A stretch of DNA of 64,000 nucleotides. Source: Blastocatellia bacterium (lineage in GTDB: Bacteria; Acidobacteriota; Blastocatellia; HR10; J050). The DNA is taken from the NCBI GenBank assembly GCA_025054955.1, contig JANWZE010000031.1:38567-102566 (forward strand), in the 5' to 3' direction. Numbering within the stretch: position 1 is the first letter of the stretch; each line of letters opens with the position of its first letter. This document shows positions 3,387-60,424 of this stretch, piece after piece. Made by a program: the position numbers and the translations under genes. The notes under the pieces were generated by a model. The model was not told where the DNA came from. It worked only from the letters and a program-made list of their open reading frames with translations, and did not search any database.

Positions 3387-4850
3387 ATGGACATAAGGAC
3401 GTATGGACGGAGGGCGGATAAGGCGCCTGTTCTCATTGCTGGTTATCCGCGCCGACGCTCGCCTGCACTGGTTGGTCTGGGATGGCGTGATCTGTTCGTT
3501 CAGGATCAGCTCGTGCATAGCGCATTGATTGGCACGATTGTCATCGGCTTTTTCATCGCCTATATCAAGGATCGTTATCCGATTCCGCTAAGCTATTTCC
3601 TATTCGACATCGGTCTGGGTGTGACGCTGTTATTTTGGTTGACGGGAACGGATCGGCTCTCTCATCTGCGGCTGCCGCGAACGCCGCTGACGCTGCCGCT
3701 GCTGATTTTCTACATGGTGTGCTTTGTCTACATTTTCTTTCCTGATGTTCCGTTGCTGGTTAGTCTATCAGCCTTTCGCGGCTGGTGTGTATCATCGCTG
3801 GCGTTTTTCATCGGTTATGATCTCATCAAATCCGAGCGGCATGTTGAGTTCTACCTGCGTCTTGTTATTCTGCTAGGGATGATCGCCGGCGCCTACGGCA
3901 TCTACCAATATGCGGCTGGCATCGAGAGTGTGCTGAGCGACGATGTCATCGCTTCGCAGCGTCACCAGTTTGCTACCTATGTCACCGAGGAAGGTGAGTT
4001 GGAATTTCGCATTTTTTCCACGTTCGTCTCGGCAGGCGCATTCGGTACAATGATGTCATATACCAGCTTCATCGCGTTGGCGCTCGCCATCAGCGATAAG
4101 GTTTCAACGCGCCAGAAGGTGCTACTGGGATTGGCGATCCTGCCGATGTTGACCAGCCTTGTGCTAACCGGCACGCGCGCAGCGTTGCTCATGATGGTGA
4201 TTGGCGTGGTGATTCTTTACTGGTACAAGCGCCATTTCCGCATCTATGTCACGGTCATGATTCTGATCCTGATAGGCGTTCAACTCGGCATCAGCCTGAC
4301 GGAAGGGCGCGCCGCGAGCCGGTTCGCTTCGTTGACCAACCTCGACGTGTTGCTCGGGCGGCTATCCAATCCGTTCATTACTGGCTGGGAATCGCTCATG
4401 CAAGCGCCATTGGGGCATGGCCTCGGCGTCACCGGTCATGGCGTGCCGTTCTATCTGCTGCAACAGTATCCAACATTGCAGCTCATCTTTTCCGATGGTG
4501 ATTATGGACGAATCATGGTGGAAATGGGCATCGTGGGCTTGGCGCTGCTCTCGTTGATCATGCTGACGGCCATTCGAGGTGGTGTTAAATCACTGCGGAT
4601 GCTACGCACGACGCCATCACAAGATGCCGCATTGGCCATCTTCGGCAGCAGCGTGATGGTTGGCATTACAACGTTGGTTGGCTCACCATTTCTCGGCATT
4701 CCTCATGGCTTGTTGTGGTGGTTTTTCATGGGCGCGCTGTTCAAATTGCAGATAATCTGGGCTGACCGCCGACAAGGCGCGGCGATTGAGGTCGCTCGAC
4801 GCCAGGTGGCGACTGCTGCTGCACGCCGCCGTGCGAACGTAGCGCCGTGA
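3387..4850 (+). CDS. O-antigen ligase / polysaccharide polymerase-like polytopic membrane protein (Wzy/WaaL family)
   Basis: About 10-12 hydrophobic segments. Lies in a GT cluster. A loop segment ...GTRAALLMMVIGVV... and a periplasmic-loop region are typical of the O-antigen ligase family. Confidence 0.6.
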   Translation: MDIRTYGRRADKAPVLIAGYPRRRSPALVGLGWRDLFVQDQLVHSALIGTIVIGFFIAYIKDRYPIPLSYFLFDIGLGVTLLFWLTGTDRLSHLRLPRTPLTLPLLIFYMVCFVYIFFPDVPLLVSLSAFRGWCVSSLAFFIGYDLIKSERHVEFYLRLVILLGMIAGAYGIYQYAAGIESVLSDDVIASQRHQFATYVTEEGELEFRIFSTFVSAGAFGTMMSYTSFIALALAISDKVSTRQKVLLGLAILPMLTSLVLTGTRAALLMMVIGVVILYWYKRHFRIYVTVMILILIGVQLGISLTEGRAASRFASLTNLDVLLGRLSNPFITGWESLMQAPLGHGLGVTGHGVPFYLLQQYPTLQLIFSDGDYGRIMVEMGIVGLALLSLIMLTAIRGGVKSLRMLRTTPSQDAALAIFGSSVMVGITTLVGSPFLGIPHGLLWWFFMGALFKLQIIWADRRQGAAIEVARRQVATAAARRRANVAP

Positions 4851-11135: not shown

Positions 11136-11516
11136 ATGTCGGAAACCGCACAGTACATTCCGGTCTTGATCCTGCTGATTTTCACGTTGCTCATTGGCGG
11201 TGTGATGTTGTTGTTGCCTAGGTTGATTGCCCGTCGTCGCCCGACGCCGGAAAAGAATATGGCGTATGAGTGTGGCAAAGACCCCATTGGCTCGCCGCGC
11301 GAACGTTTTAGTATTGCGTTTTATCTGGTTGCCATGATTTTCATCTTGTTTGATATTGAGGCAATTTTCCTCATTCCGTGGGCAGTGGTGTTTCATGATC
11401 TGGCTGCGGAGTTTTCCAAGGCATTCGTTTTCGTTGAGATGATGATTTTCATTGCCATCTTATTGGTTGGTTACGTCTACGTGTGGAAGAAAGGCACGTT
11501 TGATTGGAATCGGTGA
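11136..11516 (+). CDS. nuoA: NADH-quinone oxidoreductase subunit A
   Basis: Small 3-TM protein. Conserved ...YECGKDPIGSPRERFSIAFYLVAMIFILFDIE.... Confidence 0.9.
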   Translation: MSETAQYIPVLILLIFTLLIGGVMLLLPRLIARRRPTPEKNMAYECGKDPIGSPRERFSIAFYLVAMIFILFDIEAIFLIPWAVVFHDLAAEFSKAFVFVEMMIFIAILLVGYVYVWKKGTFDWNR

Positions 11517-29677: not shown

Positions 29678-29715
29678 ATCCATTTTTTTGGAAATCTGTG
29701 ACCAAAAAAATGGAT
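29678..29715. promoter_or_regulatory. perfect 14-bp-stem inverted repeat (atccatttttttgg-N10-ccaaaaaaatggat) in the receptor's 5' region
   Basis: Seen directly. The A/T tracts in both arms would make it a bidirectional terminator-like or operator-like structure. Confidence 0.5.
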
Positions 29716-29789
29716 GCCTGCGCCCGATCAATAAGCAACCGTCTCCTTGATTTCAATCGGCTTCTGCGTACCGAGAATGTTCTATAGCG

Positions 29790-29867
29790 ACAATTGCCTT
29801 TACCCGGGGAGCACCCGCCTCATGTACGCTTGAGTGGGCGCTCCTAGGGTAGGGCAAACCGCTCTAG
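29790..29867. repeat. degenerate copy of the structured family-A repeat
   Basis: cccggggagcacccgcctcatgtacgcttgagtgggcgctcctagggtagggcaaaccgctctag, compare with the copies at 23745 and 43231. Confidence 0.5.
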
Positions 29868-30144
29868 TACAGGAGACACGTTCATGGAGGCAAAAGCATG
29901 GCGGGAGCCGAACTGAGTGAAGGGGAATGTCCGATCTTGGCTCGATATTGGTAGAATACCTCCCGCCGCACAGTTAGTGGAGTGTGCAGCGGATTTATCG
30001 TCTTATGGTCACCAGCCTGAAGTCATGCTCGGCACTGGAGCCACAACTCCAGAGGGCTGCTGCAGCCACCCATCTATCTTTCAGGGCTATTATGTAGTGG
30101 CACCCACAGGTGCGAGTGGCTGATTCAGTCATCAGGCGGTTTTG

Positions 30145-30525
30145 TTAGAAGCCGCCAAACAGTTCAAATGAAAACAGGTCAAAAAGCCACTGAAACACGC
30201 GCCACGATGACTGGTAAGACCAATAATGAGTGCCATAGGAGGAATATGAATTGGCCTGAACACCCGCGACGGAACCACGACCAAAACCGGAGCCACCCAT
30301 GATACTGCCACTCACGCTGACATGCCCGATCGTCCCACTGCTGGAGCTAGCACCGCCAACAACTCCACTACCGCCACCGGGTCGGCCGGTGTGACCCTCT
30401 CTGGAGGCTTGTGAACTTATGCGAATGTCTCCACCGGGTCGGCCTGTATGGCCCTCTCGTGCAAAAACTGGAACCGTAGCCAAGAATAAAATGAAGAGTG
30501 CGAAAAGCGTCAATGTTTTCTTCAT
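30145..30525 (-). CDS. small secreted Gly/Ser-rich repeat protein (hypothetical)
   Basis: RBS GGAGGAAAGC before MKKTLTLFALFILFLATVPVFA (signal peptide). Internal repeat REGHTGRPGG x2. Confidence 0.5.
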   Translation of the reverse strand: MKKTLTLFALFILFLATVPVFAREGHTGRPGGDIRISSQASREGHTGRPGGGSGVVGGASSSSGTIGHVSVSGSIMGGSGFGRGSVAGVQANSYSSYGTHYWSYQSSWRVFQWLFDLFSFELFGGF

Positions 30526-30626
30526 GCTTTCCTCCGTTCCGCTATCAAAAACACGGTTACTTAGTATGATTGCGCAGCCAAGACGTTGCTTGGTTGCAAT
30601 CATTGTCTGACGATATAAAATTGGAA

Positions 30627-32066
30627 TCAAACATTATATTTCCTTCTCAACATAGTGATATAAGCCTTGGTGACCCCAAGTAACTCAGCAGCGCGCACCT
30701 GACTTCCATTAGCGCGTTGCAACGCTTCCGTCAGTAAAAACTTACCCAGTGACTCATGGGCTTCTCGCCACGTCGGCAGAAAGCTGCTTTTGATAACAAA
30801 AACGCCGCCGGCTGTCTTGATTTTCTCTTCCTTGAGCAGGTTCTCGATTCGCTCGATCTGCGTCTTGATATAGGCATCTGTATAGCCGTTTAGCAAGTTC
30901 TTCGCTCGATGAAGATATTCATAAGCCACAACTCCCTCACCCTTGCGAGCGTAGACCTCAGCCAAATACGTGCAGCTTTCGCATTCGAGCATTTTACTTT
31001 TGAGCTGAATAGCAAGCCGCAAGGCCTCGTCGAGCTTTTCCTTGCTTTCGTCCAGCGCGCCTTGAGTAGCCAACACACGACCCAGTGTGATGAGCGCGAA
31101 CGCTTTCTCCTGGTCATTTTTGGCTAAGTCAGCCAGTTGAATAGCTGAGTAAAGGACCTGACGAGCTTCCTCCAAGCGCCCTTGCTCAAGATGTAATACG
31201 CCCATCAGCTCAAGCGTCATGGACTCGCCAGCAATATCAGTGGCCCGACGACGGAGTTCCAGGCTCTCTTGAAGCAGGTCTGCGGCTGCTTTGTACTTAC
31301 CAAGGCGAATATAGGTGTAGGCTAAGTTGTTTGTAGCATGGCCGAGGTCATCAAAGACCGCGCTTTCTGAAAAGTAATGAATCGCTTTTTGAAACAGCTC
31401 CGCCGCCTCATCATACCGTCCCTTTGCACGCAACAAGATGGCGTAACTATTCAACACACCTGCATAGTATCGCCCATCTTCGGTCTTTTTGAGCAGTTTT
31501 ATGGCTTTGTTGTAAAACGATTCGGCCTGACTTAACTCACCTAACTGGTGATGAATGACTCCCAGGTTGAACGAAATGATCCCGGTAATGAAGTCTGTGT
31601 CTATGTCTGTCTGTGACTCGATAACGTCTAGTGCTTCGTCCAGATGTTTTTTAGCAAGCTCATATTGACCCTGGCGACGGTAAATCCTGCCCAACACAGA
31701 GAGCGCACGAGCTTGACCAAACCTATCGCCCTTAATCCGGTAGATGCCCAGCACATTCTGTAATTGCTTCTCGGCCGCTTCATACTCACCCCGCCAGTAC
31801 AATAATTCTGTTTTGGCCAACCCAAATTCAGCCGTGTCTTTCAGGTTTGTCTCGTCGTCAATCTTGTCTTCAGACGATTGGAGCACCTCTTCCGCTTCTT
31901 CAAGCCGCCCTTGATAGATCAGAATGTGCGCCTTGATAGCCGAAGCTCGCAGTTCACTCGTATCAGGGATACGCTCGATGAGCTTCGCTGCTTGCTTGTA
32001 ATTCCCACGTAGTACTAAATCCTCAACTTGGGAGATGTCTGTGGTGTGCAAAATGGATTTTGTCAT
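30627..32066 (-). CDS. TPR-repeat regulator with C-terminal Fis-type helix-turn-helix
   Basis: About 8-10 TPR-like repeats. C-terminus ...EALQRANGSQVRAAELLGVTKAYITMLRRKYNV matches an HTH_8/Fis motif. GC content is lower than the surroundings. Confidence 0.7.
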   Translation of the reverse strand: MTKSILHTTDISQVEDLVLRGNYKQAAKLIERIPDTSELRASAIKAHILIYQGRLEEAEEVLQSSEDKIDDETNLKDTAEFGLAKTELLYWRGEYEAAEKQLQNVLGIYRIKGDRFGQARALSVLGRIYRRQGQYELAKKHLDEALDVIESQTDIDTDFITGIISFNLGVIHHQLGELSQAESFYNKAIKLLKKTEDGRYYAGVLNSYAILLRAKGRYDEAAELFQKAIHYFSESAVFDDLGHATNNLAYTYIRLGKYKAAADLLQESLELRRRATDIAGESMTLELMGVLHLEQGRLEEARQVLYSAIQLADLAKNDQEKAFALITLGRVLATQGALDESKEKLDEALRLAIQLKSKMLECESCTYLAEVYARKGEGVVAYEYLHRAKNLLNGYTDAYIKTQIERIENLLKEEKIKTAGGVFVIKSSFLPTWREAHESLGKFLLTEALQRANGSQVRAAELLGVTKAYITMLRRKYNV

Positions 32067-32243
32067 AATTGCCTTCCTTGTTTACGAGTATCAATTCTTA
32101 CCATAGTCAACATGAGTATACCAAAATGATGATTAATAGTCAATTCAAAAAATTATCTAGTTTCGATTACTGCAACTAATTCACTCAATAACAAAGAATT
32201 ATAAAATTTTCAATAAAAAAGTTCACAATAATAAATTTTCTTC

Positions 32244-32271
32244 TTGACAAATAGATTTATCATGCTATACT
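32244..32271 (+). promoter_or_regulatory. near-consensus sigma-70 promoter (TTGACA-16-TATACT) ahead of the peptide array, inside a <35% GC tract
   Basis: ttgaca at 32244-49 and tatact at 32266-71. The first peptide ATG is at 32313. Confidence 0.55.
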
Positions 32272-32312
32272 AATGACGTGTTTGACAATTATGAACTCAT
32301 AAGGAGTGAACG

Positions 32313-32426
32313 ATGAAAAACATTCGACAACAACTCGGACAGATTGATCCAATTACCTTGGCTTTGGCTCTCTTGCTGGCGCTTGGCACGTTCTTTAGCG
32401 GTGCTTGTCCCATTCCAACGCAGTAA
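32313..32426 (+). CDS. small peptide 1 of a tandem paralogous array (37 aa, MKNIRQQLGQIDPITLALALLLALGTFFSGACPIPTQ)
   Basis: Own RBS AAGGAG 6 nt upstream. Conserved core QLGQIDPITL(L/A)LALLLALGT-GACPI is shared with peptides 2-5. Confidence 0.6.
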   Translation: MKNIRQQLGQIDPITLALALLLALGTFFSGACPIPTQ

Positions 32427-32466
32427 GGAGTCTCTTTCTATCCAAAAATATAAAAGGAGAACGACA

Positions 32467-32568
32467 ATGAACAGAATCAAGCAGCAATTTGGTCAGATTG
32501 ACCCGATCACTTTACTGTTAGCTTTGCTCCTGGCCCTGGGCACAGGTGCTTGCCCTATTAGGTTTTAG
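32467..32568 (+). CDS. small peptide 2 (33 aa, MNRIKQQFGQIDPITLLLALLLALGTGACPIRF)
   Basis: RBS AAGGAGA. Paralog of peptide 1. Confidence 0.6.
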   Translation: MNRIKQQFGQIDPITLLLALLLALGTGACPIRF

Positions 32569-32610
32569 CAATTGAGATTTCTCTTAACTTCATATCAAGG
32601 AGTGATGATT

Positions 32611-32712
32611 ATGAATAAGATCAAACAGCAACTCGGACAGATTGACCCCATCACCCTATTGCTGGCTTTATTGTTGGCGCTGGGCACGGGTGCTTGCCCG
32701 ATTAGCTTTTAG
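32611..32712 (+). CDS. small peptide 3 (33 aa, MNKIKQQLGQIDPITLLLALLLALGTGACPISF)
   Basis: RBS AAGGAG 8 nt upstream. Paralog. Confidence 0.6.
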   Translation: MNKIKQQLGQIDPITLLLALLLALGTGACPISF

Positions 32713-32767
32713 TCGTAATTCAGGTTTTTCTTACTTTCAAAATATCAAATAAAAAAGGAGAAATGAC

Positions 32768-32875
32768 ATGAATAAGATCAAACAGCAACTCGGACAGATT
32801 GACCCCATCACCCTATTGCTGGCTTTGTTGTTGGCGCTGGGCACAGGCGCTTGCCCTATTGCGCTGGGTCGCTAA
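32768..32875 (+). CDS. small peptide 4 (35 aa, MNKIKQQLGQIDPITLLLALLLALGTGACPIALGR)
   Basis: RBS AAAAGGAGA. Paralog. Confidence 0.6.
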   Translation: MNKIKQQLGQIDPITLLLALLLALGTGACPIALGR

Positions 32876-32911
32876 TCACGACGCATCAGCCTGCAAATCA
32901 GGAGACGAAAC

Positions 32912-33013
32912 ATGAAAGCGATTACGCGACAGCTCGGACAAATAGATCCCGTTACCATTTTGATAGCCCTGTTGCTTGCACTAAGCGCGGGAACTTGTTC
33001 AATCGTACCCTGA
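32912..33013 (+). CDS. small peptide 5 (33 aa, MKAITRQLGQIDPVTILIALLLALSAGTCSIVP), most divergent copy
   Basis: RBS CAGGAGA. Paralog. Confidence 0.55.
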   Translation: MKAITRQLGQIDPVTILIALLLALSAGTCSIVP

Positions 33014-33036
33014 CCAGCTTTCAGGTCAACATCGGG

Positions 33037-33077
33037 ACCAAGCTGAGCATTTACCAAACCATCACGCTCAGCTTGGT
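33037..33077 (+). terminator. perfect 12-bp-stem hairpin (accaagctgagc-N17-gctcagcttggt) between the peptide array and the ECF sigma gene
   Basis: Seen directly. Followed by a weak T-rich stretch 'tcctgttat', so it may be a terminator or attenuator that allows read-through. Confidence 0.5.
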
Positions 33078-33108
33078 TCCTGTTATGGAGAGTTATGGAG
33101 GATCAGCT

Positions 33109-33708
33109 ATGGCTGCACAAATGGTTGCAAGATTGACGGATTTTCAGTTAGCTCGAGCTTCAGCCGCTGGGGATCATCGGGCTTTTGAAATGCTTTACTG
33201 CCAGCATCACCGACGGGTTTACAGTCTGTGCTTGAGGATGCTGAGGAACCACGAAGAGGCGGAGGATGTGACCCAAGAGGTTTTTCTCCAGGTCTATCGT
33301 AAGATCAATAGTTTTCAGGGCAATTCGGCTTTCACCACCTGGCTTCACCGATTGACAGTTAACATGGTGCTCATGTATTTACGGCGCAAACAGAAGGGGC
33401 ATAGGCAGGAAGAGACGTTGGAAGCAAACCAAATGGCCGATCCACTGGAGAATCGCAAACAGGTTGGGCATCCTGATTTTCCCATTGAGGCAGTTGATTT
33501 GCAGAACGCGATCAATGATCTACCAAATGGCTACCGCCAGGTCTTTATCCTGCATGATATCGAAGGATATGAGCACAATGAGATTAGTCAATTACTGGGC
33601 ATTAGCGTCGGAACGGCGAAATCTCAACTGCACAAAGCTCGGTTGAAACTGCGACAAGCGCTGCGAGCTACCCACCCGCAACAACTCGTGACGGCGACCG
33701 TTCAATAA
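33109..33708 (+). CDS. ECF-type (sigma-70 family) RNA polymerase sigma factor
   Basis: Region 2 (...DVTQEVFLQVYRKINSFQGNSAFTTWLHRLTVNMVLMYLRRK) and region 4 HTH (...NEISQLLGISVGTAKSQLHKARLKLR). Start set at MAAQMVARL with RBS GGAGGA, with 33085 as an alternative. No anti-sigma gene follows. Confidence 0.8.
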   Translation: MAAQMVARLTDFQLARASAAGDHRAFEMLYCQHHRRVYSLCLRMLRNHEEAEDVTQEVFLQVYRKINSFQGNSAFTTWLHRLTVNMVLMYLRRKQKGHRQEETLEANQMADPLENRKQVGHPDFPIEAVDLQNAINDLPNGYRQVFILHDIEGYEHNEISQLLGISVGTAKSQLHKARLKLRQALRATHPQQLVTATVQ

Positions 33709-33710
33709 CT

Positions 33711-35066
33711 TTATTCAGTGTCAGTTTCAATCGGTTCTTTCTGAGGGCTACTGCGCAAGCCATATTTTTCCAACCGGTACTGTAGCGTGCGAAACGAAAT
33801 GCCCAGCAGTTTAGCGGCCTGCGTGATGTTTCCATCCGTGCGCTGCATAGCTTGGACGATCAGCGAGCGTTCGACTTCGTCCAGGACCACGCCGTCGGGC
33901 GGCAACTTAAAGATCGCGGCGCTTCGCTCTTGTTGATGTTGGCGTAATTCCGGGGGCAAATCGTCCTGACCGATCTGGTCGCTTTCACACAGTAAGATGG
34001 CGCGCTCAATCACTGATTCAAGTTGACGCACATTGCCCGGCCAACCATAGTTCATGAGCGCCTCCATCGCCGAGCGTGTCAGGCCGCTGATCCGTCGGTG
34101 AGCGGCTCGGGCATGCTTAGCCAGAAACAGATTGACCAACACCGGGATGTCCTCACGACGTTCCCGCAACGGCGGCACGTCAATCGAAAGCACATTGATG
34201 CGATAGAATAAGTCCTCGCGAAACCGACCATCTTGCACCATTGCGTCTAAATCCCGATTGGTGGCCGTCAGGACGCGAACGTCAACTTTGACCGGTCGCG
34301 TGCCGCCGACGCGCATGATTTCTTTCTCTTGCAGCGCTCGCAGTAGCTTGGCTTGCATGCTTGTGTTGAGCTCAGCAATTTCGTCTAAGAACAGTGTCCC
34401 TTGATCGGCGACCTCAAACAGGCCTTTTTTCTGCGCGTGGGCGCCGGTGAAGCTGCCTTTTTCGTGGCCGAACAATTCGGACTCCATCAGGTTCTCATTG
34501 ATAGCCGCGCAGTTGACTGCCTGAAAAATCTGGTTTGACCGTTGACTAGCTTTGTGGATCGCGCGTGCGATGCGCTCTTTACCGACGCCAGACTCGCCGC
34601 GAATGAGCACCGTTGAAGATGAATTGGCCACTTTTAAGATCATTTTTTTGACGCGCTCCATGGCTGCTGAGGCGCTGACGATCTCTTCGTCAATCGCGTC
34701 CAATTGCTTAAGCGCCTCTTGGATCGTTTTCAGCAGTGTGTCACGCTCCAGTGGTTTTTCCAGGTAGTCATAGGCGCCTAGCTTAATAGCTTCCTTAGCC
34801 GAATCAATCGAGCCATGGGCTGTCATCATGATGACGCAGGTGGATGAGTCCTGCGTCAGAAGCTCCTTCAGAAGCTGCAAGCCATCCATGCCTGGCATTT
34901 TCAGATCGGTGAGCACTAAATCGAAATGCTCATGTGCGACAAGCTGCATAGCCTGATGGCCGCTTGCGGCTGTGCTGACCTGATGTCCCTCTTCAGCGAG
35001 GATCAGTTGCAGAATATCGCGTTGAAGCTTTTCATCATCTACAACCAAAATCTTTCTGCTACGCAT
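33711..35066 (-). CDS. sigma-54-dependent response regulator (NtrC family: REC + AAA+ + Fis HTH)
   Basis: Receiver DLVLTDLKMPGMDG, Walker A GESGVGKE, GAFTGA motif (GSFTGA) and C-terminal HTH. Confidence 0.9.
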   Translation of the reverse strand: MRSRKILVVDDEKLQRDILQLILAEEGHQVSTAASGHQAMQLVAHEHFDLVLTDLKMPGMDGLQLLKELLTQDSSTCVIMMTAHGSIDSAKEAIKLGAYDYLEKPLERDTLLKTIQEALKQLDAIDEEIVSASAAMERVKKMILKVANSSSTVLIRGESGVGKERIARAIHKASQRSNQIFQAVNCAAINENLMESELFGHEKGSFTGAHAQKKGLFEVADQGTLFLDEIAELNTSMQAKLLRALQEKEIMRVGGTRPVKVDVRVLTATNRDLDAMVQDGRFREDLFYRINVLSIDVPPLRERREDIPVLVNLFLAKHARAAHRRISGLTRSAMEALMNYGWPGNVRQLESVIERAILLCESDQIGQDDLPPELRQHQQERSAAIFKLPPDGVVLDEVERSLIVQAMQRTDGNITQAAKLLGISFRTLQYRLEKYGLRSSPQKEPIETDTE

Positions 35067-38032: not shown

Positions 38033-39136
38033 TCATAGGTTGTTGCTAGCGCTGGCGGGCAGCGCGGCATGTCCTTGATAACAGCACGGACCCGGAGGAA
38101 TCCGTTTGCCATGCGGACAGTGCGTCGGGTGACCAAGGAAGGCGCATATACTATTGGTCATTTCCGGGCTTAAAATGTGCTCGAACACACAGGCTTCAGC
38201 TTCAGCCTGTTGATCCGGCATGCTGAGCGTGTTTGAGAAAAGCGTCTCAGCGAGCCGATGTCGTCGAATCAAGCTCCGAGCGCGTGCCTCGCCTTCCGAG
38301 GTGAGAAAGATGTCGTTGCCGTTGAGCGTGAACAACCGATTCATCCGCTCCGCATTGATATAGGCCTCACCGAACCGTCCGAGTGTTTTGATCACTGCAT
38401 CGCGTGTCAACTGACCGTCTTCTCTGAGCACCCAGAGTTGCTCCATGATTTCGTCAATGTTCTCCTCGACTTTTTCCGGCGTCAGATCAAAACCGATGAC
38501 GCGGCCATGATCCAGTTGAATCTGCCGATCCGCTTTCTGACCGATGCGGACATCGTGTGTGACCAGCACAATGGTATGGCCTTCGTGATGCAGTTCGCTC
38601 AACAGGTCCATGACAAGGCGTTCGTTCTCTTCATCAAGATTGCCCGTTGGCTCATCGGCCAGCAGCAAAGGCGGCTCATTGATCAGCGCCCGAGCGATGC
38701 ATACGCGCTGTTGTTCACCTCCGGAGAGCTCGCAAGGCCGATGGGTCAAGCGGTGGCCTAGGCCAACTCGCGCGAGCGCTTCGGCAGCTTCTTTCTCATC
38801 AACCATACTGTGGTAGTACTGAGCCAGCATGACGTTTTCCAGGGCTGTCAGATAAGGGATCAAGTGGAATTGTTGAAAAATCAGGCCGACATGTTCACGA
38901 CGGAATTCAGTCAATTGCGCGCCGGACAATTGCGTCACATCGTGGCCGGCAATCACCAGTCGTCCTTCGTCTGGTGTATCCAGGCAACCGAGCAAATTCA
39001 ACAGTGTCGTTTTACCTGAACCCGATGGCCCCATCACGGATACCCACTCGCCTTGCTCGATACGCATATCCACGTGATCAAGCGCGCGAACCGGGCCGTA
39101 GTCTTTGGTTAATTTTTCCGCCGTGATGAATGACAT
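38033..39136 (-). CDS. ABC transporter ATP-binding protein (LolD/MacB-type) fused to a C-terminal DtxR-like metalloregulator domain
   Basis: Walker [10 protein letters not shown], signature LSGGEQQR, Walker B LLLADEP. Residues ~225-367 align to the DtxR HTH plus metal-binding/dimerisation region (…[13 protein letters not shown]…[25 protein letters not shown]…) and end in a Cys-rich tail [13 protein letters not shown]. Confidence 0.75.
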
Positions 39137-39140
39137 AATT

Positions 39141-40283
39141 TCACTCTCCTTTCAACGCCGAGGCCGGCTCGATCGTGAGCGCCCGCTTGAGCGGCGCGTA
39201 TGCTGCCAGCCAACACACAATCAGAGCAAGCGCCAGTGTCAATGGAATCGTCTCTGGCCGAGGTGAGACGCCGGTCTGGAATAGACGCAGGCCAATGAGC
39301 CGTGACCCGATCACGCCGATAGCAAAGCCCGCCAACCCGCCAACCAACGCCAACACCGACGCCTCACTCAACAACAGTCCCAAAATCTGACGCGGTTGCG
39401 CGCCCAACGCTTTCATCAAACCAATTTCACGATGACGTTCCATCACAAGCGCCATCATCGTCGTCATCACGCACAACGCTGAAGTGATCAGGATGATAGC
39501 CGTCAGCACGAACATCACCCATTTGACTTTGCTCAGCACCTGAGCTTCGGATTGCGCGACTTGTCTGAGCGGACGCGCTTCAACGCCTGTAATCCGTTGT
39601 TCAATTTCTCGCGCTGTGGCTTGAACCTGTTGAAGGCCACCCATGACACTCAATGCCAAGAGTGAAATCTGAGCCTTCAGGCCGGTTGCGTGTTGGAGCG
39701 TCGAGAGGCTCATGAATACTTGCTCATCTTCGGATTCACCGGTCGTAACAATGCCCGTGATTCGTAGCAGGCCTTTCCAGCTCCCATCGCCGATGGCCAA
39801 CTGAATGCGATCGCCGACTTGCAATCCCAATCGCTGGGCCAGTTGCGAGCCAATCATGCCTGCATCAGTATTGTCATCGCGAGCCCATTCTCCTTGAACG
39901 TGCCAATATGGGCTGACTTGGCGAACGCTGTTGAATCGGACCCCAGCAACGATGACTGCCTCGTTGCTGGGGTCGGCCTGAATTGTCCCCGTTGCGTAAA
40001 GATAGGGCGCTGAACCAATCACCTTATCAGTGCCGCTGAGGCGTTCCACTTCCACCCACGACTCGCTCAAATGGCTTTCAGGGAACCGGGGGATCACAAC
40101 CAGGTTCGCTCCGTAGGTTCTGAGCTCTCGGTTCATTTTGCGCTCCACATCGAACGTCAAATTGAGCAGCGTCGCTGCCGCCGCCGTTCCCACCATGACA
40201 GCCAGTAAAGCCAGCGCCACTTTGACGCCCCGTCGCACCAGCGATTGTTTGAGCATCTGCCAAAAAAGTTGCTGCTGATTCAT
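39141..40283 (-). CDS. FtsX/MacB-family ABC transporter permease
   Basis: N-terminal TM, large periplasmic domain, C-terminal 3-TM FtsX domain (...GLMKALGAQPRQILGLLLSEA...). Start set at MNQQQLFWQ, 16 nt after the upstream gene's stop. Confidence 0.75.
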   Translation of the reverse strand: MNQQQLFWQMLKQSLVRRGVKVALALLAVMVGTAAAATLLNLTFDVERKMNRELRTYGANLVVIPRFPESHLSESWVEVERLSGTDKVIGSAPYLYATGTIQADPSNEAVIVAGVRFNSVRQVSPYWHVQGEWARDDNTDAGMIGSQLAQRLGLQVGDRIQLAIGDGSWKGLLRITGIVTTGESEDEQVFMSLSTLQHATGLKAQISLLALSVMGGLQQVQATAREIEQRITGVEARPLRQVAQSEAQVLSKVKWVMFVLTAIILITSALCVMTTMMALVMERHREIGLMKALGAQPRQILGLLLSEASVLALVGGLAGFAIGVIGSRLIGLRLFQTGVSPRPETIPLTLALALIVCWLAAYAPLKRALTIEPASALKGE

Positions 40284-40299
40284 ACGCCTTCGTGTATCG

Positions 40300-41577
40300 T
40301 CATGTATTGCGCAAAATTTCAACCGGACGGAAACCAAGCAATTGTCTTGCCGGCACAGCGCACCCAATCAGCGCAATGGCTACTGCCACGCCCAATGCCA
40401 GTGGTAATATGATCGGCTTAAGAGCGACGCTTGAACCGAAAACCACGCTGCCAACCAGCTTGGCTAGTATGATCCCTAAGCCGCAGCCCATGAACCCGCC
40501 GATCAATCCCATCAACGACGCCTCTGTAAGAAACAGAACAACCACCTGTGCGTTGGTCGAGCCAATGGCTTTCATCAATCCAATCTCGGTTCGTCGCTCC
40601 AGCACCGTTGTCATCATAGTGCTCATCACAGCCAGCGCCGATGCCACCAATGCCAGTGCAGCAACCAGTATCATCATGAGTTTCATTTTCTGCAGAATTC
40701 GAGCTTCGGATTCAACAACCCGCTGAATCGGTTTGACGTCAGCCATCGGGAACACCTCACGCAGATTGTGGGCAATCGAACTGACGAATGGCGTACACAT
40801 CCACCGCTCGAATTCTTCTGGCGGCAACCGGTGCGGGTCAGTCCCGAGGCGTTCATAGACTTTGCTTTCCGGTGTCGTGAGCGCGCTGACCAATACGCGC
40901 TCGATTTGTCCTTCACGCCGGGTGAGCTTCTGTACAGCAGCAAGCGTGGTGAAAATTTGATCGTCTTCCGCTCCGCCGGTTGTCAGGACACCGGTGACAT
41001 AAAACGAATCCTGCTGGTTGCCAACTTTGATCTCAAGCGTCTGGCCAGGCTGAATCTGTAATGCCTTGGCTACCGCTTGGCCAACCAGGGCCTGTTGAGG
41101 CGCGTTGGTTTCATCAACCCACTGACCCTCCACATGCCAAAGCGGATTGAGCGTCTTCATGCCGGTTTCCATGGCCCCGCCCTCGAAGCGAACCGGCTGA
41201 TGAAACCAAGTTCCGACCAATTTGACCGCCCGACCACGCACCGAGGCCCACTCGTCCAATATCGGAGCGAATGCCAAAATGTTGTGTCGCCAGAAGACCT
41301 CTTTGATTCTCGGCAGATGGCTTTCAGGCAATGCGCCTTCGGGTTTAAGCCGGCTCAAATCCTCGCCACCAATCTCTAACGGCAGAGCCGTCCCTTTGGG
41401 CACAATCAGCAAGTTGGCTCCAAACGCTTTCAGCTCACGATTGACCTTATCCTCCACATCCAGTGTGATGTTGAGTAGAACGACGATCACACTTGTGCCC
41501 AGCATCAGCGCCAACGTCGCAATCAATTTGCTACGTCGCTGTCGGCGGAACGATTGTGCGACCACACGAAAAAACAT
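40300..41577 (-). CDS. FtsX/MacB-family ABC transporter permease
   Basis: Same architecture (...GLMKAIGSTNAQVVVLFLTEA...). Paralog of the downstream permease. Confidence 0.75.
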   Translation of the reverse strand: MFFRVVAQSFRRQRRSKLIATLALMLGTSVIVVLLNITLDVEDKVNRELKAFGANLLIVPKGTALPLEIGGEDLSRLKPEGALPESHLPRIKEVFWRHNILAFAPILDEWASVRGRAVKLVGTWFHQPVRFEGGAMETGMKTLNPLWHVEGQWVDETNAPQQALVGQAVAKALQIQPGQTLEIKVGNQQDSFYVTGVLTTGGAEDDQIFTTLAAVQKLTRREGQIERVLVSALTTPESKVYERLGTDPHRLPPEEFERWMCTPFVSSIAHNLREVFPMADVKPIQRVVESEARILQKMKLMMILVAALALVASALAVMSTMMTTVLERRTEIGLMKAIGSTNAQVVVLFLTEASLMGLIGGFMGCGLGIILAKLVGSVVFGSSVALKPIILPLALGVAVAIALIGCAVPARQLLGFRPVEILRNT

Positions 41578-41605
41578 CAGGCGTACTCCTGATTTTTACT
41601 TCTCG

Positions 41606-43027
41606 TTAACGAGCGTACATCTCTGGGTTCTTCTCGAATGCCTTAGCGCATTCCGGCATTTTGCAAAAATAGTAAGTCCGCCCATTGTGCTGAACCTGCT
41701 TGCCCACATCAGCCATGCGCAGCTTCATCTGGCAAACAGGATCAAGAAGTTCGACCGGCTCGCTGTTGCCGAATCGTCCAACTTCCTTCATCACATCGCT
41801 GGCAGCGACCACTAACCAATCTCCATTAACGTGAGACGCCAGTGGAATGGGATTGCAGCCGCCGGTTTCGCCGATCGTCGGCGCATGAATATCTGCCGCG
41901 CAGTTGAGGCAGACGATCGCCCGGTCCTCCTGAACATATCCGTAAGCGCCGCAAATTTCGCAGGCGTCAAATGCCGTGCGGATTTTACCCTCGTCTGTCT
42001 TGAGCGCCAAAAAGCGAACCGTCGTCCCATTGACCGGCAAGCCGAAGCGATGAAGCTGGCCGTCATTGACCTCAGCGATAGGAATTTTGATCAGACCATT
42101 GTCGGCTTGCACGAGCTTCGGTGGACTAATCGTTCTCGAGCGCGTCGAGTAAGCATAATTGACTGTCAACACGGTGACGATCAAAACGCCAACCGTCGCC
42201 GTGATCAGTCGCCACCGCTTTTCCCGATTGAGCTGGGCCAATTGTTTGCGTGCTTCGGCCCCGTGAAGTTCAGCCGCCATGCTCAGGCGTTGTCGCGCTT
42301 GTTGACTGGGAACGAGTGTCATGATCAGTGGCAGCGCAATGATCGTCAAGATGAACAGCACATCGTGCTTGACAAGTGGTCCAATCAGGCTCATTTGGCG
42401 CGGCCCCAGAGGAATGACGCCGGCTTCCGCCAACTCGTGCAGACCACCGATTACAAGCTGCACGGCAAAGACCAGCAGCACAATACCTGTTACCTTGAAG
42501 AACCGGCCTAGATCAATGCGTACCGCTCCTTTGAATATGGCAATGCCCAGCGTCACGGCCAAACCAAGACCTATTATTCCGCCAAGCCAGCTAAGCAGCG
42601 CGTCGGTTGTCAAATTGACTGCGCTCAGAAATAGGATCGTCTCGATGCCTTCGCGAAAGATCATGACAAAAGTGAATCCAACAAGTCCCCACGAGTAGCC
42701 GGCAGCAGCTCCCTCGACAATTGTGCCGACGCGCTGCTCAATCTCTCCTTTTAATCTATGAGCCGTGCGCCACATCCAAATGATCATACTGCTGACAAAC
42801 ACAGCAGCCACCAGCATGGCAACGCCTTCAAATAACTCAGCGTTGAACTGAATGCGACTGAGACTCCACGCCCCGATGAGGCTAGCCAGCACAGCCAAGC
42901 TTAACCCCAAATAGACCGAGCGCGTTAAATCACTTCGCTCAATTTTGCGCAGGTAGGCCAGAATGATCCCAATAATGAGGGCGGCTTCAACGCCTTCACG
43001 CAACATGATGACGAGTGCTTGAAACAT
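41606..43027 (-). CDS. FTR1-family high-affinity iron permease fused to a Cys-rich periplasmic domain and a C-terminal YHS domain
   Basis: Two REXXE motifs (MLREGVEAAL, IFREGIETILF) in a 7-TM core. Then DACEICGAYGY...CLNCAADIH...GGCNP. Then the YHS-like DPVCQMKL...GRTYYFCKMPECAKAFEKNPEMY. Start set at MFQALVIML. Confidence 0.75.
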   Translation of the reverse strand: MFQALVIMLREGVEAALIIGIILAYLRKIERSDLTRSVYLGLSLAVLASLIGAWSLSRIQFNAELFEGVAMLVAAVFVSSMIIWMWRTAHRLKGEIEQRVGTIVEGAAAGYSWGLVGFTFVMIFREGIETILFLSAVNLTTDALLSWLGGIIGLGLAVTLGIAIFKGAVRIDLGRFFKVTGIVLLVFAVQLVIGGLHELAEAGVIPLGPRQMSLIGPLVKHDVLFILTIIALPLIMTLVPSQQARQRLSMAAELHGAEARKQLAQLNREKRWRLITATVGVLIVTVLTVNYAYSTRSRTISPPKLVQADNGLIKIPIAEVNDGQLHRFGLPVNGTTVRFLALKTDEGKIRTAFDACEICGAYGYVQEDRAIVCLNCAADIHAPTIGETGGCNPIPLASHVNGDWLVVAASDVMKEVGRFGNSEPVELLDPVCQMKLRMADVGKQVQHNGRTYYFCKMPECAKAFEKNPEMYAR

Positions 43028-43102
43028 AGGAATGGATCCTAATTTGAAAATGGTTTTCAATTTCGAGCAGAAGAGATTAACGACAGAAGGGGAAAAAGTC
43101 AA

Positions 43103-43390
43103 CGAGCAAGGCCAGCGCGTTCAGCAACGTTTCATCCGCACGCATGTTTCGACGTGTATTAGTAGAGATGAGCAGGGCTAGATTGCGTTCAGTGACGTTT
43201 CATCCGCGCGCGTATCTGGACACGAGCTAGAGCGATTTGCGAATGAGTTTATCCTGGGGCGCGCACTTCCAGCATGCATGAGCCCGCAAGATGCGGGCGC
43301 TCCCCGGGTAAAGGCAAATGAAAATCGCTTTAGTGAGAAGGATGAGCGCGGCACAGGGTCGCGTTCAGTGACGTTTCATCCGCGCGCGTA
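43103..43390. repeat. repeat cluster: three copies of a ~35-bp unit derived from the GT2 gene 3' end (gcgttcag(t/c)(g/a)acgtttcatccgc(g/a)cgc(g/a)t(a/g)t) flanking a ~100-bp family-A structured element (43231-43333)
   Basis: Unit copies at about 43126, 43185 and 43357. The 43357 copy contains the gene's stop and last codons. Confidence 0.8.
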
Positions 43391-59859: not shown

Positions 59860-59911
59860 GATCTCCTCCGTCAAAAAAGTCACAGATTGCTCGGATTCCC
59901 ACTGATTTTTC

Positions 59912-59950
59912 TCCTTTGAGCATGTGGCACAGGCATTCGCGCCTGTGCTC
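59912..59950 (-). repeat. family-C motif copy (reverse orientation) in the BNR gene leader
   Basis: Reverse complement reads gagcacaggcgcgaatgcctgtgccacatgctcaaagg. Confidence 0.6.
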
Positions 59951-60206
59951 TATTTTCATGCTTCTTGGCGAGCCTCAGCTCATGAACGATTCCTCGGTGA
60001 AGACCAACGTTGGGCGTGTCCCTCCTTAGTGTCTTTCTCATAACTGTGTTGCCCGAAATGTTGAGACACTGGAGAGTAGGCGTGAGTTTGAAAAAATTTT
60101 CACCGTTGTGAGAATGGGGATCCCCGGACGGGAGAAGCGATGAAAATCCGGCCACGGATGAATACAGATGGACACCGTGTGATGAGACGATCCATGTTGA
60201 TGTGTA

Positions 60207-60270
60207 TCCATCCGTGGTGATTTTCCGGGGAATTGCCCATGATCGCTGAGCACGCCACGAACGATGACAA
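60207..60270 (+). repeat. family-D repeat copy (…g(a/t)ttttccg(a/g)gg(a)attgcccatga(t/g)cgctgagcacgccacgaacga…)
   Basis: Second copy at 63478-63540. Confidence 0.7.
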
Positions 60271-60424
60271 TGGAACAGATCAGTCTGATATAGTTTTACC
60301 CCATGCGCAAATCCACATGAGCCTTCTTGGCTTTTTGCATTCGCTTTGCTACACACTCCAAGAGCATTCAACCTGTTGCTCTCTGCTAGCTTGGGCATTA
60401 AACTAACAATCCGCCGATACGGTT

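Follow-up and report, generated by a model that had tools for sequence, protein, structure and literature searches.

A low-GC regulatory cassette of thermophilic Blastocatellia, probably inherited vertically, and its likeness to peptide-signaling loci

By current descriptions, cytoplasmic tetratricopeptide repeat (TPR) receptors encoded next to secreted mini-peptides are a speciality of Firmicutes and of mobile elements (PMC10075063). In the prgX/prgQ system of the Enterococcus faecalis plasmid pCF10, the gene of a receptor-repressor and an operon with a mini open reading frame (mini-ORF) lie on opposite strands of one control region, and in prgQ a hairpin (IRS1) placed after the signal-peptide-like mini-ORF gates read-through into the downstream genes (PMC7117660). 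The enterococcal pheromones originate from the signal peptides of lipoproteins: signal peptidase II cuts these at a conserved Cys, and Eep, which recognizes their N-termini, cuts next (PMC7117660). Extracytoplasmic function (ECF) sigma factors that lack an anti-sigma factor and are controlled transcriptionally, in cascades, form an accepted class as well (PMC8999054). Here, we have analyzed a locus that resembles each of these systems in part. It occupies positions 30145-33708 of a 64-kb stretch of DNA from a Blastocatellia bacterium (contig JANWZE010000031.1, positions 38,567 to 102,566 of the forward strand), hereafter called the window. Four functional units are located in this tract, in agreement with a preliminary description of the sequence: a secreted Gly/Ser-rich protein, a TPR regulator with a helix-turn-helix (HTH) domain, an array of tiny peptides and an ECF sigma factor.

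The preliminary description had suggested that the tract was acquired horizontally. Our results indicate that it is probably a compact cassette of regulatory genes, specific to a lineage of thermophilic Blastocatellia, vertically inherited and with a low GC content linked to its function, rather than a recent island. The genes of the regulator and of the secreted protein were found linked in every complete locus, over 49-100% regulator identity and in at least four genomic contexts. This supported the further proposal that the tract is a self-contained regulatory or signaling module.

Base composition and gene order of the tract

The GC content of positions 30145-33708 was compared with that of the remaining 60 kb by direct counts and by sliding windows of 3564 bp across the 64 kb. 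The tract has 47.0% GC, compared with 55.4% in the rest and 55.0% in the whole window. The 3564-bp windows had a mean GC content of 54.9% with a standard deviation (sd) of 2.2, the tract being about 3.5 sd lower and falling in the lowest 0.5% of these windows. All equally low windows overlap the tract, and the window with the minimum begins at 30451. The trough previously described was thus confirmed, no other 3.6-kb stretch of the 64 kb being lower in GC. The actual trough extends from ~30.4 to 33.8 kb, and its left edge is soft, with the Gly-rich gene (30145-30525) at 52.8% GC, which is near average. The flanks, estimated at ~60% GC in the preliminary description, measured ~54-58%. The intergenic tract 32090-32300, described as below 35% GC, lies far lower, at 24.2%.

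The coding DNA of the tract has 49.5% GC and its 615 non-coding bases have 35.1%, so that the GC deficit splits into 174 and 125 bp-equivalents, respectively. AT-rich promoter and spacer DNA makes up about 42% of the deficit, and the other ~58% corresponds to the low GC content at the second and third codon positions (GC2 and GC3) of the TPR regulator and ECF genes. These two genes have a GC2 of 0.35, which is low because of their amino-acid composition, and a GC3 of 0.53-0.54, the window mean for GC3 being 0.637 (sd 0.045). With the other genes of the same window as the reference for codon usage, their value on a scale similar to the codon adaptation index (CAI) was 0.70-0.71 vs. 0.739 (sd 0.041), that is, less than 1 sd low. 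A composition and codon-usage check, put forward as a way to reveal foreign origin, returned the GC trough and CAI-like values within 1 sd. A low GC content is in itself nothing unusual in the window: the core housekeeping gene nuoA (11136-11516) is equally low (47.2%). The most atypical composition in the window was that of an unrelated, unannotated ORF at 59880-60398 (minus strand, 172 aa, no Pfam match), with a GC3 of 0.47 and a CAI-like value of 0.59, both under those of every gene of the tract.

The regulator family consists of ~20 orthologue clusters among 5.8 billion proteins, and its loci number 8 among 185,579 species genomes, plus 12 from metagenomes. All named regulator relatives are Acidobacteriota/Blastocatellia, from metagenome-assembled genomes of hot-spring type, and the regulator, peptide and secreted-protein families, three orphan families, are confined to this same lineage. 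The loci compared are designated by L numbers and described in Table 1. In the relatives with 95%, 78% and 76% regulator identity, the shared neighbors are the sigma-54 response regulator (RR) and histidine kinase (HK) genes on one side and the TonB receptor and phosphoribosyltransferase (PRT) genes on the other. The synteny comparison advised by the preliminary description spoke hence against recent acquisition, the cassette being present between the same genes in these relatives and absent only in much more distant Blastocatellia. An identical context in relatives had been named beforehand as evidence against the island, and this is what we found for the near relatives. Regarding divergence from L012, the identity values were 76% (TPR regulator) and 71% (ECF) in the cassette, and 83% (RR), 69% (HK), 80% (ATP-binding cassette (ABC) gene) and 58% (PBP) in the flank.

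Table 1. Loci of the regulator family, with regulator identity, gene arrangement and number of peptide genes
Locus	Regulator identity	Arrangement	Peptide genes
Window	100%	HK, sigma-54 RR, ECF, peptides, TPR-HTH, secreted protein, TonB receptor(s), PRT	5
L010/L011	95%	Gene order as in the window	4
L017/L018	78%	Order of the window, on short contigs: RR fragment, ECF, peptides, TPR-HTH, start of the secreted protein	2
L012/L013	76%	Gene order as in the window	1
L002/L008/L019	68%	Cassette with ECF directly adjoining the ABC/MacB genes, which are 4 kb away in the window	1
L014-L016	70%	Unrelated context, without ECF	1
L027	49%	Unrelated context, without ECF	1
~55% group	54-57%	Regulator and secreted protein only	0

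The peptide gene(s) and the ECF sigma gene are accessory parts of the cassette. In L032, the most distant member of the family (37% identity), recognizable partner genes were not found.

We have also looked for traces of mobility. A tRNA/tmRNA scan of the 64 kb found none. The search for flanking repeats gave only short chance matches (e.g., D8, 15 nt, 87%), and there was no integrase, transposase or other mobility gene among the neighbors (TonB receptor, PRT, sigma-54 RR, HK, PBP and ABC genes). Thus, neither the flanking direct repeats nor the integrase proposed as markers of the island were detected. No relatives of the cassette families were present on viral contigs, and plasmids provided only generic TPR matches of at most 28% identity.

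The GC content of the cassette tracks that of the host, with 47% in genomes of ~55% GC and 60-62% in genomes of 62-64% GC, and the intergenic control region is AT-rich in every peptide-bearing locus (25-35% GC). A dip of -7.8 to -8.4 points relative to the host was observed only in the three closest lineages. It was -5.0 points in L014/L015, where the peptide gene is present behind an AT-rich region, and -2.8 to -3.7 points in L002/L008, although the intergenic region is AT-rich there too (29-34% GC). In the group of ~55% identity, where the peptide gene is absent, the dip was -1.8 to -3.2 points. From these comparisons, the cassette appears to be a long-standing resident of its chromosomal site that was occasionally relocated over deep time.

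Genes and control elements of the cassette

TPR-like helical hairpins number ~10 in the AlphaFold2 model of the regulator, a confident one (mean predicted local distance difference test (pLDDT) 90.9, predicted template modeling score (pTM) 0.82), which also has a short beta-hairpin and, at the C-terminus, a three-helix, Fis-like HTH (HTH_8). Foldseek and a PDB sequence-profile search ranked LGN, KLC and consensus TPRs first, and for this reason the modeled fold is read as one of peptide-binding receptor type, with a predicted shape closest to Rap/RRNPP proteins. Specific homology to the RRNPP family was unsupported by these searches, with RapF reaching only an E-value of 1.7e-5 in the PDB profile search and NprR ranking 41st in Foldseek. 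We have discarded the assignment of the regulator to HaaT, AfsR, FimS, SusR or MalT, since the NCBIfam scores were far under the cutoffs and reflected generic TPR similarity.

The gene of the secreted protein lies directly downstream of the regulator gene in every complete locus, its product being the only universal partner of the regulator. In this protein, a predicted Sec-type signal peptide is followed by a pair of REGHTGRPGG repeats, the first starting at the predicted cleavage site, then by a linker of Gly and Ser and by a C-terminal tail of aromatic and hydrophobic character. It had no match in Pfam or NCBIfam searches. Its family comprises 12 clusters, all of them hypothetical proteins and, when named, from Blastocatellia. 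The homologues range from 102 to 128 aa, and they have two repeats and a tail that is hydrophobic. In their alignment (A5, 18-84% identity), invariance within the mature part is limited to the G and P in each of the two G[RK]P repeats, the further invariants being the initiator Met and the alanine that precedes the signal-peptidase site. One branch of the family has repeats of the form RE(G/S)H(A/T)G(R/K)P, and the other has GVT(A/M)GG(R/K)P.

The peptide genes are each preceded by an AGGAG-type Shine-Dalgarno site (coordinates in Table 2). Among the paralogues, the proportion of synonymous differences (pS) was 0.6-1.0, near saturation, and that of nonsynonymous differences (pN) was 0.05-0.23. 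This excess of pS over pN, together with the Shine-Dalgarno site at every copy, supported that the peptide genes are genuine. Genes 2 and 3, with a pS of 0.83 vs. a pN of 0.05, are indicative of purifying selection. The leader of gene 3 is 96% identical to that of gene 4 and 93% identical to copy c of L010, and its tail is 89% identical to that of gene 2, which is suggestive of an unequal crossover that expanded the array from four to five copies.

The peptide consensus is M-(K/N)-x-I-x-x-Q-x-G-Q-x-D-P, followed by a Leu-rich helix, small residues and a Cys, invariant in 11 of the 11 aligned peptides, after which there is usually a Pro. Conservation is highest in the cytoplasmic N-region, where G9, Q10 and D12 are invariant, and in the helix, and not in the tail, which has 4-7 variable residues after the Cys (PIPTQ, PIRF, PISF, PIALGR, SIVP, PPVQ, PIAP and others). 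The n-h-c organization of signal peptides is visible. When the PROSITE lipoprotein (lipobox) rule was applied as a regular expression, 13 of the 14 peptides satisfied it; peptide 5, with a T at position -1, was the only failure, and the L014-type peptide carries a canonical L-V-G-C lipobox. There is no folded mature protein after the lipobox Cys, as only 4-7 residues follow it, and none in L027. If lipobox processing occurs, it would yield micro-lipopeptides and free signal peptides.

An exhaustive profile search against 1.84 billion cluster representatives returned three true peptide clusters; two other candidates, P0057 and P0058, were rejected as low-complexity false matches. The Pfam and NCBIfam searches, toxin and entericidin families included, gave no match to the peptides. 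A GC-rich hairpin, GGGCAC-N-GTGCTTGCCC, recurs in the 3' ends of genes 2 (32538-32555) and 3 (32681-32700). It is encoded by the LGTGAC codons and is marked as terminator-like by the promoter/terminator scan, and it is also similar to a sigma-54 -24/-12 element whose spacing is one nucleotide out. A sigma-54-like sequence in the peptide genes, TGGGCAC-N5-CTTGC, was dismissed, given that its GG-to-GC gap is 11 nt instead of 10 and that it is dictated by the same codons.

The promoter scan of the divergent control region produced 12 promoter-like sites vs. 4.8 expected from shuffled sequences, the two divergent ones being the best. The strong promoter anticipated in the preliminary description is in keeping with these two divergent, near-consensus sigma-70 promoters predicted in the AT-rich tract, of which that of the peptide operon is conserved across loci. 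In six loci, its -35 TTGACA is invariant and its -10 TATACT nearly so. The spacer AAATTTATCATG is kept as far as the 70%-identity lineage, despite the different genomic context there, which is suggestive of an overlapping operator. Reading by eye, we noticed an imperfect palindrome, TGAyAAAT-N2-ATTTrTCA, spanning the -35 and the spacer of the peptide promoter, and a comparable one, TGAnnATTAATnnTCA, spanning the -35 of the regulator promoter. Both appear operator-like, with a chance origin being possible in DNA so AT-rich. No antisense RNA promoter of quality was found in the promoter scan. When the 64 kb were scanned with Rfam at gathering thresholds, nothing was returned; in particular, the 558 bp that precede the TonB receptor gene contain no riboswitch match.

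In the window and in L010, L017 and L008, a strong hairpin occupies the same place between the peptide genes and the ECF gene (z -3.8 to -4.9), the sequences of L017 and L008 being different. The folding at this position was not significant in L002 and L012. The maintenance of the position with differing sequences argues for a positional function, such as attenuation or transcript stabilization. The hairpin is a candidate attenuator, partial terminator or RNA-stabilizing element. The ECF sigma factor, of ~200 aa, has sigma-2 and sigma-4 domains only. It passed solely the cutoff of the NCBIfam sigma70-ECF superfamily (TIGR02937, 115.9 bits vs. 42.9) and reached that of no equivalog. No anti-sigma gene is adjacent: there is no room for one downstream, because the convergent sigma-54 RR gene ends at 33711, and the genes upstream encode peptides of 33-37 aa, too short for an anti-sigma domain. 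The same applies to L002, where the 3' end of a convergent gene comes at once after the sigma gene.

Table 2. Coordinates of the cassette features and of the adjoining segment (positions of the window)
Feature	Coordinates	Strand	Basis
Strain-specific non-coding segment (~395 bp) abutting the cassette	29718-30111		blastn vs. L010
Secreted Gly/Ser-rich protein, 126 aa	30145-30525	-	ORF and translation; GGAGG ribosome-binding site
Predicted cytoplasmic one-component regulator, 479 aa	30627-32066	-	TPR_12/TPR_MalT repeats and C-terminal HTH_8
Divergent control region, 246 bp, 26.8% GC	32067-32312		Promoter scan and GC counts
Predicted regulator promoter: TTGACT, 17 nt, TATACT	TTGACT 32143-32138; TATACT to 32115	-	10/12 matches, TG extension
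Predicted peptide promoter: TTGACA, 16 nt, TG-n-TATACT	TTGACA 32244-32249; TATACT to 32271	+	11/12 matches, TG extension
Peptide gene 1, 37 aa: MKNIRQQLGQIDPITLALALLLALGTFFSGAC + tail PIPTQ	32313-32426	+	ORF; AAGGAG ribosome-binding site; agrees with the lipobox rule; L010 orthologue
Peptide gene 2, 33 aa: MNRIKQQFGQIDPITLLLALLLALGTGAC + tail PIRF	32467-32568	+	ORF, lipobox rule, substitution rates
Peptide gene 3, 33 aa: MNKIKQQLGQIDPITLLLALLLALGTGAC + tail PISF	32611-32712	+	Chimera: leader of gene 4 type, tail of gene 2 type
Peptide gene 4, 35 aa: MNKIKQQLGQIDPITLLLALLLALGTGAC + tail PIALGR	32768-32875	+	ORF, lipobox rule
Peptide gene 5, 33 aa: MKAITRQLGQIDPVTILIALLLALSAGTC + tail SIVP	32912-33013	+	ORF; L010 orthologue 94% identical
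15-bp hairpin between peptide gene 5 and the ECF gene, no U-tract	33034-33080	+	Inverted repeat I6; -37.1 kcal/mol, z -3.8
ECF-type sigma factor, 199 aa	33109-33708	+	Sigma70_r2 1.2e-19, Sigma70_r4_2 1.4e-17

The non-coding segment at the left border stands in place of 5.3 kb of the closest relative (L010, 11986-17290). Both L010 and L012/L013 carry an extra TonB-dependent receptor gene and a TPR/CarboxypepD gene at this border. The segment had no match in the compared loci except in L001, from the same strain. One of two copies of a ~95-nt intergenic element lies within it (29783-29873, plus strand), the other being at 43250-43340 (minus strand). With the core TTGCCTTTACCCGGGGAGC and the inverted ends CTAnAGCG / CGCTCTAG, the element has the look of a miniature inverted-repeat transposable element or of a repetitive extragenic palindrome, and it was not found in the loci of relatives compared. 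At 29678-29715, a perfect 14-nt inverted repeat (ATCCATTTTTTTGG-N10-CCAAAAAAATGGAT) overlaps promoter-like sites upstream of a TonB-dependent receptor gene (start ~29547, minus strand) and may be a repressor operator.

On the other side, positions 38033-43102 encode an ABC ATPase with a C-terminal Fe_dep_repr_C domain, two MacB-type permeases and an FTR1-FtrD-YHS fusion, in an unusual, probable iron-uptake cluster that is conserved in L002/L008, where it adjoins the cassette. We have considered the permeases and the ATPase as a LolCDE-like lipoprotein exporter and rejected this idea. They are probably an iron-uptake system, because they adjoin the FTR1-FtrD-YHS iron permease, the ATPase has an iron-repressor C-domain, and in the window they are separated from the cassette.

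Possible function and alternative explanations

The function of the cassette would be that of a peptide-sensing regulatory cascade, each step of which we infer from the sequence and its conservation. The most likely arrangement is a peptide-responsive one-component regulator driving the divergent peptide/ECF operon, and genuine peptide sensing is possible, though doubtful. The Rap-like TPR domain would bind a peptide derived from an adjacent secreted small protein. One candidate for this ligand is the repeat motif of the secreted protein encoded downstream, which would recall rap-phr; another is a product derived from the lipobox pre-peptides. Ligand binding would alter the action of the regulator at the operator-like palindromes of both promoters. 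Transcripts of the peptide operon that continue past the hairpin would then deliver the ECF sigma factor, which would be controlled by its own synthesis and not by an anti-sigma factor.

In a fuller and quite tentative version, this would be an RRNPP-like signaling system of diderm Acidobacteriota. The Rap-fold TPR receptor with its Fis-type HTH would sense a peptide from an adjacent gene (the G[RK]P repeat, or a lipobox fragment via signal peptidase II/site-2 protease) and relay the signal through the ECF factor devoid of anti-sigma, whereas the tandem array (1-5 copies, unequal crossover, divergent tails) would represent diversifying signals. The pairing of a Rap-like, receptor-type regulator with tiny secreted peptides is undescribed outside Gram-positive bacteria. 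If true, the proposal would extend the RRNPP logic to a diderm phylum with a different wiring, in which a Fis-type HTH and an ECF sigma factor provide the output. The three orphan families (regulator, peptides and repeat protein) are small, with clear boundaries. Given their short length, the candidate ligands (CPISF, CPIRF, CPIPTQ, CPIALGR, CSIVP, LALGTGA, MNKIKQQLGQIDP and REGHTGRPGG) could be synthesized, and the hypothesis is therefore directly testable.

Several observations weigh against a vertically inherited cassette with a peptide-linked function. The GC3 of the TPR and ECF genes, ~2 sd under the window mean, is compatible with an old, incompletely ameliorated acquisition. Other Blastocatellia and Pyrinomonas, with sigma-54 RR orthologues of 69-74% identity, keep the PBP-HK-RR block without an adjacent cassette. 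Gain at the base of the clade and loss elsewhere are indistinguishable, and a deeper gain within the class is possible. The peptide of L027, the 49%-identity relative, MEKKMDTSAINPGLLPLALAVLLLLSAGVC (3488-3580, minus strand), stops exactly at the conserved Cys, and lipobox cleavage would leave only the Cys itself. The variable tail may thus be dispensable and, given also that conservation is strongest in the N-region, the idea of the tail as the active moiety is weakened. Finally, the lineage of ~55% identity has the regulator and the secreted protein without peptide or ECF genes, and so the peptides cannot be the universal ligand.

Regarding the origin of the tract, a recently acquired genomic island from a lower-GC donor, still unameliorated, would account for the lowest-GC 3.6-kb stretch of the window, for the low GC3 of the TPR and ECF genes, for the structural variant and the small repeated element at the left border, and for the fact that in blastn comparisons with L010 the DNA of the tract was slightly more diverged (82-83% identity) than that of the flank (87%). 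However, the tract has no integrase, transposase, tRNA or border repeats, it is at the same site down to 76% identity with a divergence matching that of the flanks, its homologues are confined to the lineage and missing from phage and plasmid records, its GC content follows that of the host, and its CAI-like values are within 1 sd. The recent acquisition suggested in the preliminary description is thus largely refuted and exceedingly improbable, and the locus serves as a caution: a clean GC trough over a coherent gene set looks like an island, and in this case its source is AT-rich control DNA together with the composition of individual genes. If the cassette was instead acquired long ago, or arose de novo, at the base of a thermophilic Blastocatellia subclade, and was then passed on vertically with a relocation now and then, the dip would be partly a historical remnant. 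The PBP-HK-RR blocks without cassette, the presence of at least four contexts across the lineages of 49-70% identity and the modestly low GC3 are compatible with such an origin, which we still consider rather unlikely: a donor lineage was not detected, and the dip is strong only in the presence of the AT-rich promoter and peptide spacers (-7.8 to -8.4 vs. -1.8 to -3.7 points). This lineage pattern favors a function-linked composition over history. The same intergenic DNA (24-27% GC, with A-tracts and two near-consensus promoters) could suit a tract that is xenogeneically silenced by an H-NS-like nucleoid protein, with a strong promoter kept off, but its AT-richness and promoter core sequence are conserved across lineages, which fits UP-element, promoter and operator function. 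To our knowledge, Acidobacteriota have no established silencer of the H-NS type, and silencing would be a very unlikely explanation.

As for the peptides, they may not be signals at all. As small membrane proteins (type-I-toxin-like, entericidin-like micro-lipoproteins or membrane-held modulators), they would turn the cassette into an envelope-stress module in which the ECF factor responds to the load of lipoprotein processing. Tandem small lipoprotein genes are known, e.g., those of the entericidins, and the fit to the lipobox rule, the conservation of the N-region and helix rather than of the tail, and the L027 peptide ending at its Cys would agree with this role. Such a role is nevertheless rather unlikely: the lack of a quality antisense RNA promoter and of any Pfam/NCBIfam toxin or entericidin match speaks against it, as does the linkage of the peptide to the TPR regulator where the ECF gene is absent (L014-16 and L027). 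The conserved leader, variable tails and tandem copies would also be compatible with precursors of ribosomally synthesized and post-translationally modified peptides (RiPPs), with a hypervariable Cys-containing core, and the TPR protein had a weak NCBIfam match to a RiPP-associated TPR protein (81 bits vs. a cutoff of 1125). Yet, no locus contains a maturase, radical-SAM enzyme, cyclodehydratase or peptidase-domain exporter, the supposed leader resembles a signal peptide in being a hydrophobic helix, and the match reflects generic TPR similarity, making RiPP precursors a highly improbable interpretation.

Comparison with described systems

We have compared the cassette with the Rap-Phr/RRNPP cassettes of Firmicutes, phages and plasmids (phage phi105 Rap with ERPVGT, NprR-NprX, PlcR-PapR and AimR-AimP). 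Criteria 3 and 4 of the RRNPP signature (PMC10075063) describe a TPR receptor of 250-500 aa, and the regulator has 479 aa. Criteria 1 and 5 describe an adjacent propeptide gene of 10-100 aa, as are the divergent neighbors of 33-37 aa; the downstream secreted protein (126 aa) adjoins the receptor but exceeds the 100-aa limit. Criterion 2 describes a propeptide that leaves the cell through Sec or PptAB and is matured to a short peptide, a route that would be hypothetical here. Neither homology to Rap, Rgg, NprR, PlcR, PrgX or AimR nor the architecture of these proteins (N-terminal HTH or Rap-type N-domain) was found. The cassette appears hence to bear most of the computational signature of the family but to differ in homology and architecture, and we have not filed it as an RRNPP member. 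It resembles rap-phr in having a secreted protein gene directly downstream of that of the TPR receptor, with an export signal and a short repeated motif, although peptide release is here hypothetical. It differs from RRNPP systems in its C-terminal, Fis-type HTH_8 (N-terminal and XRE-type in RRNPP), in a regulator without specific sequence homology (best PDB matches to consensus TPR and KLC), in its diderm acidobacterial host, in the lipobox-type Cys of its upstream peptides and in the 102-128 aa of its downstream protein.

The likeness to prgX/prgQ lies in the divergent promoters, the lipobox-type mini-ORFs with a conserved N-region, the hairpin and the downstream regulator gene, and it is an analogy only. 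The parts are not homologous, and the cassette is chromosomal whereas prgX/prgQ is plasmid-borne. Moreover, the cassette has 1-5 tandem peptide genes, an ECF sigma factor as cargo and no evident antisense RNA, and the processing of its peptides would be hypothetical. With ECF cascades of the HrpL type, the cassette shares a two-domain ECF factor without adjacent anti-sigma, placed downstream of the target promoter of another regulator. Unlike in those cascades, its controller would be a one-component TPR-HTH regulator and not a sigma-54 activator or two-component system, peptide genes and a hairpin lie upstream of its sigma gene, and no named ECF equivalog was matched. Classical genomic islands, which are linked to tRNA genes, bear integrases and deviate in composition, resemble the cassette in the compositional dip over a coherent gene set, from which the cassette differs in being devoid of any mobility hallmark and syntenic in its relatives.

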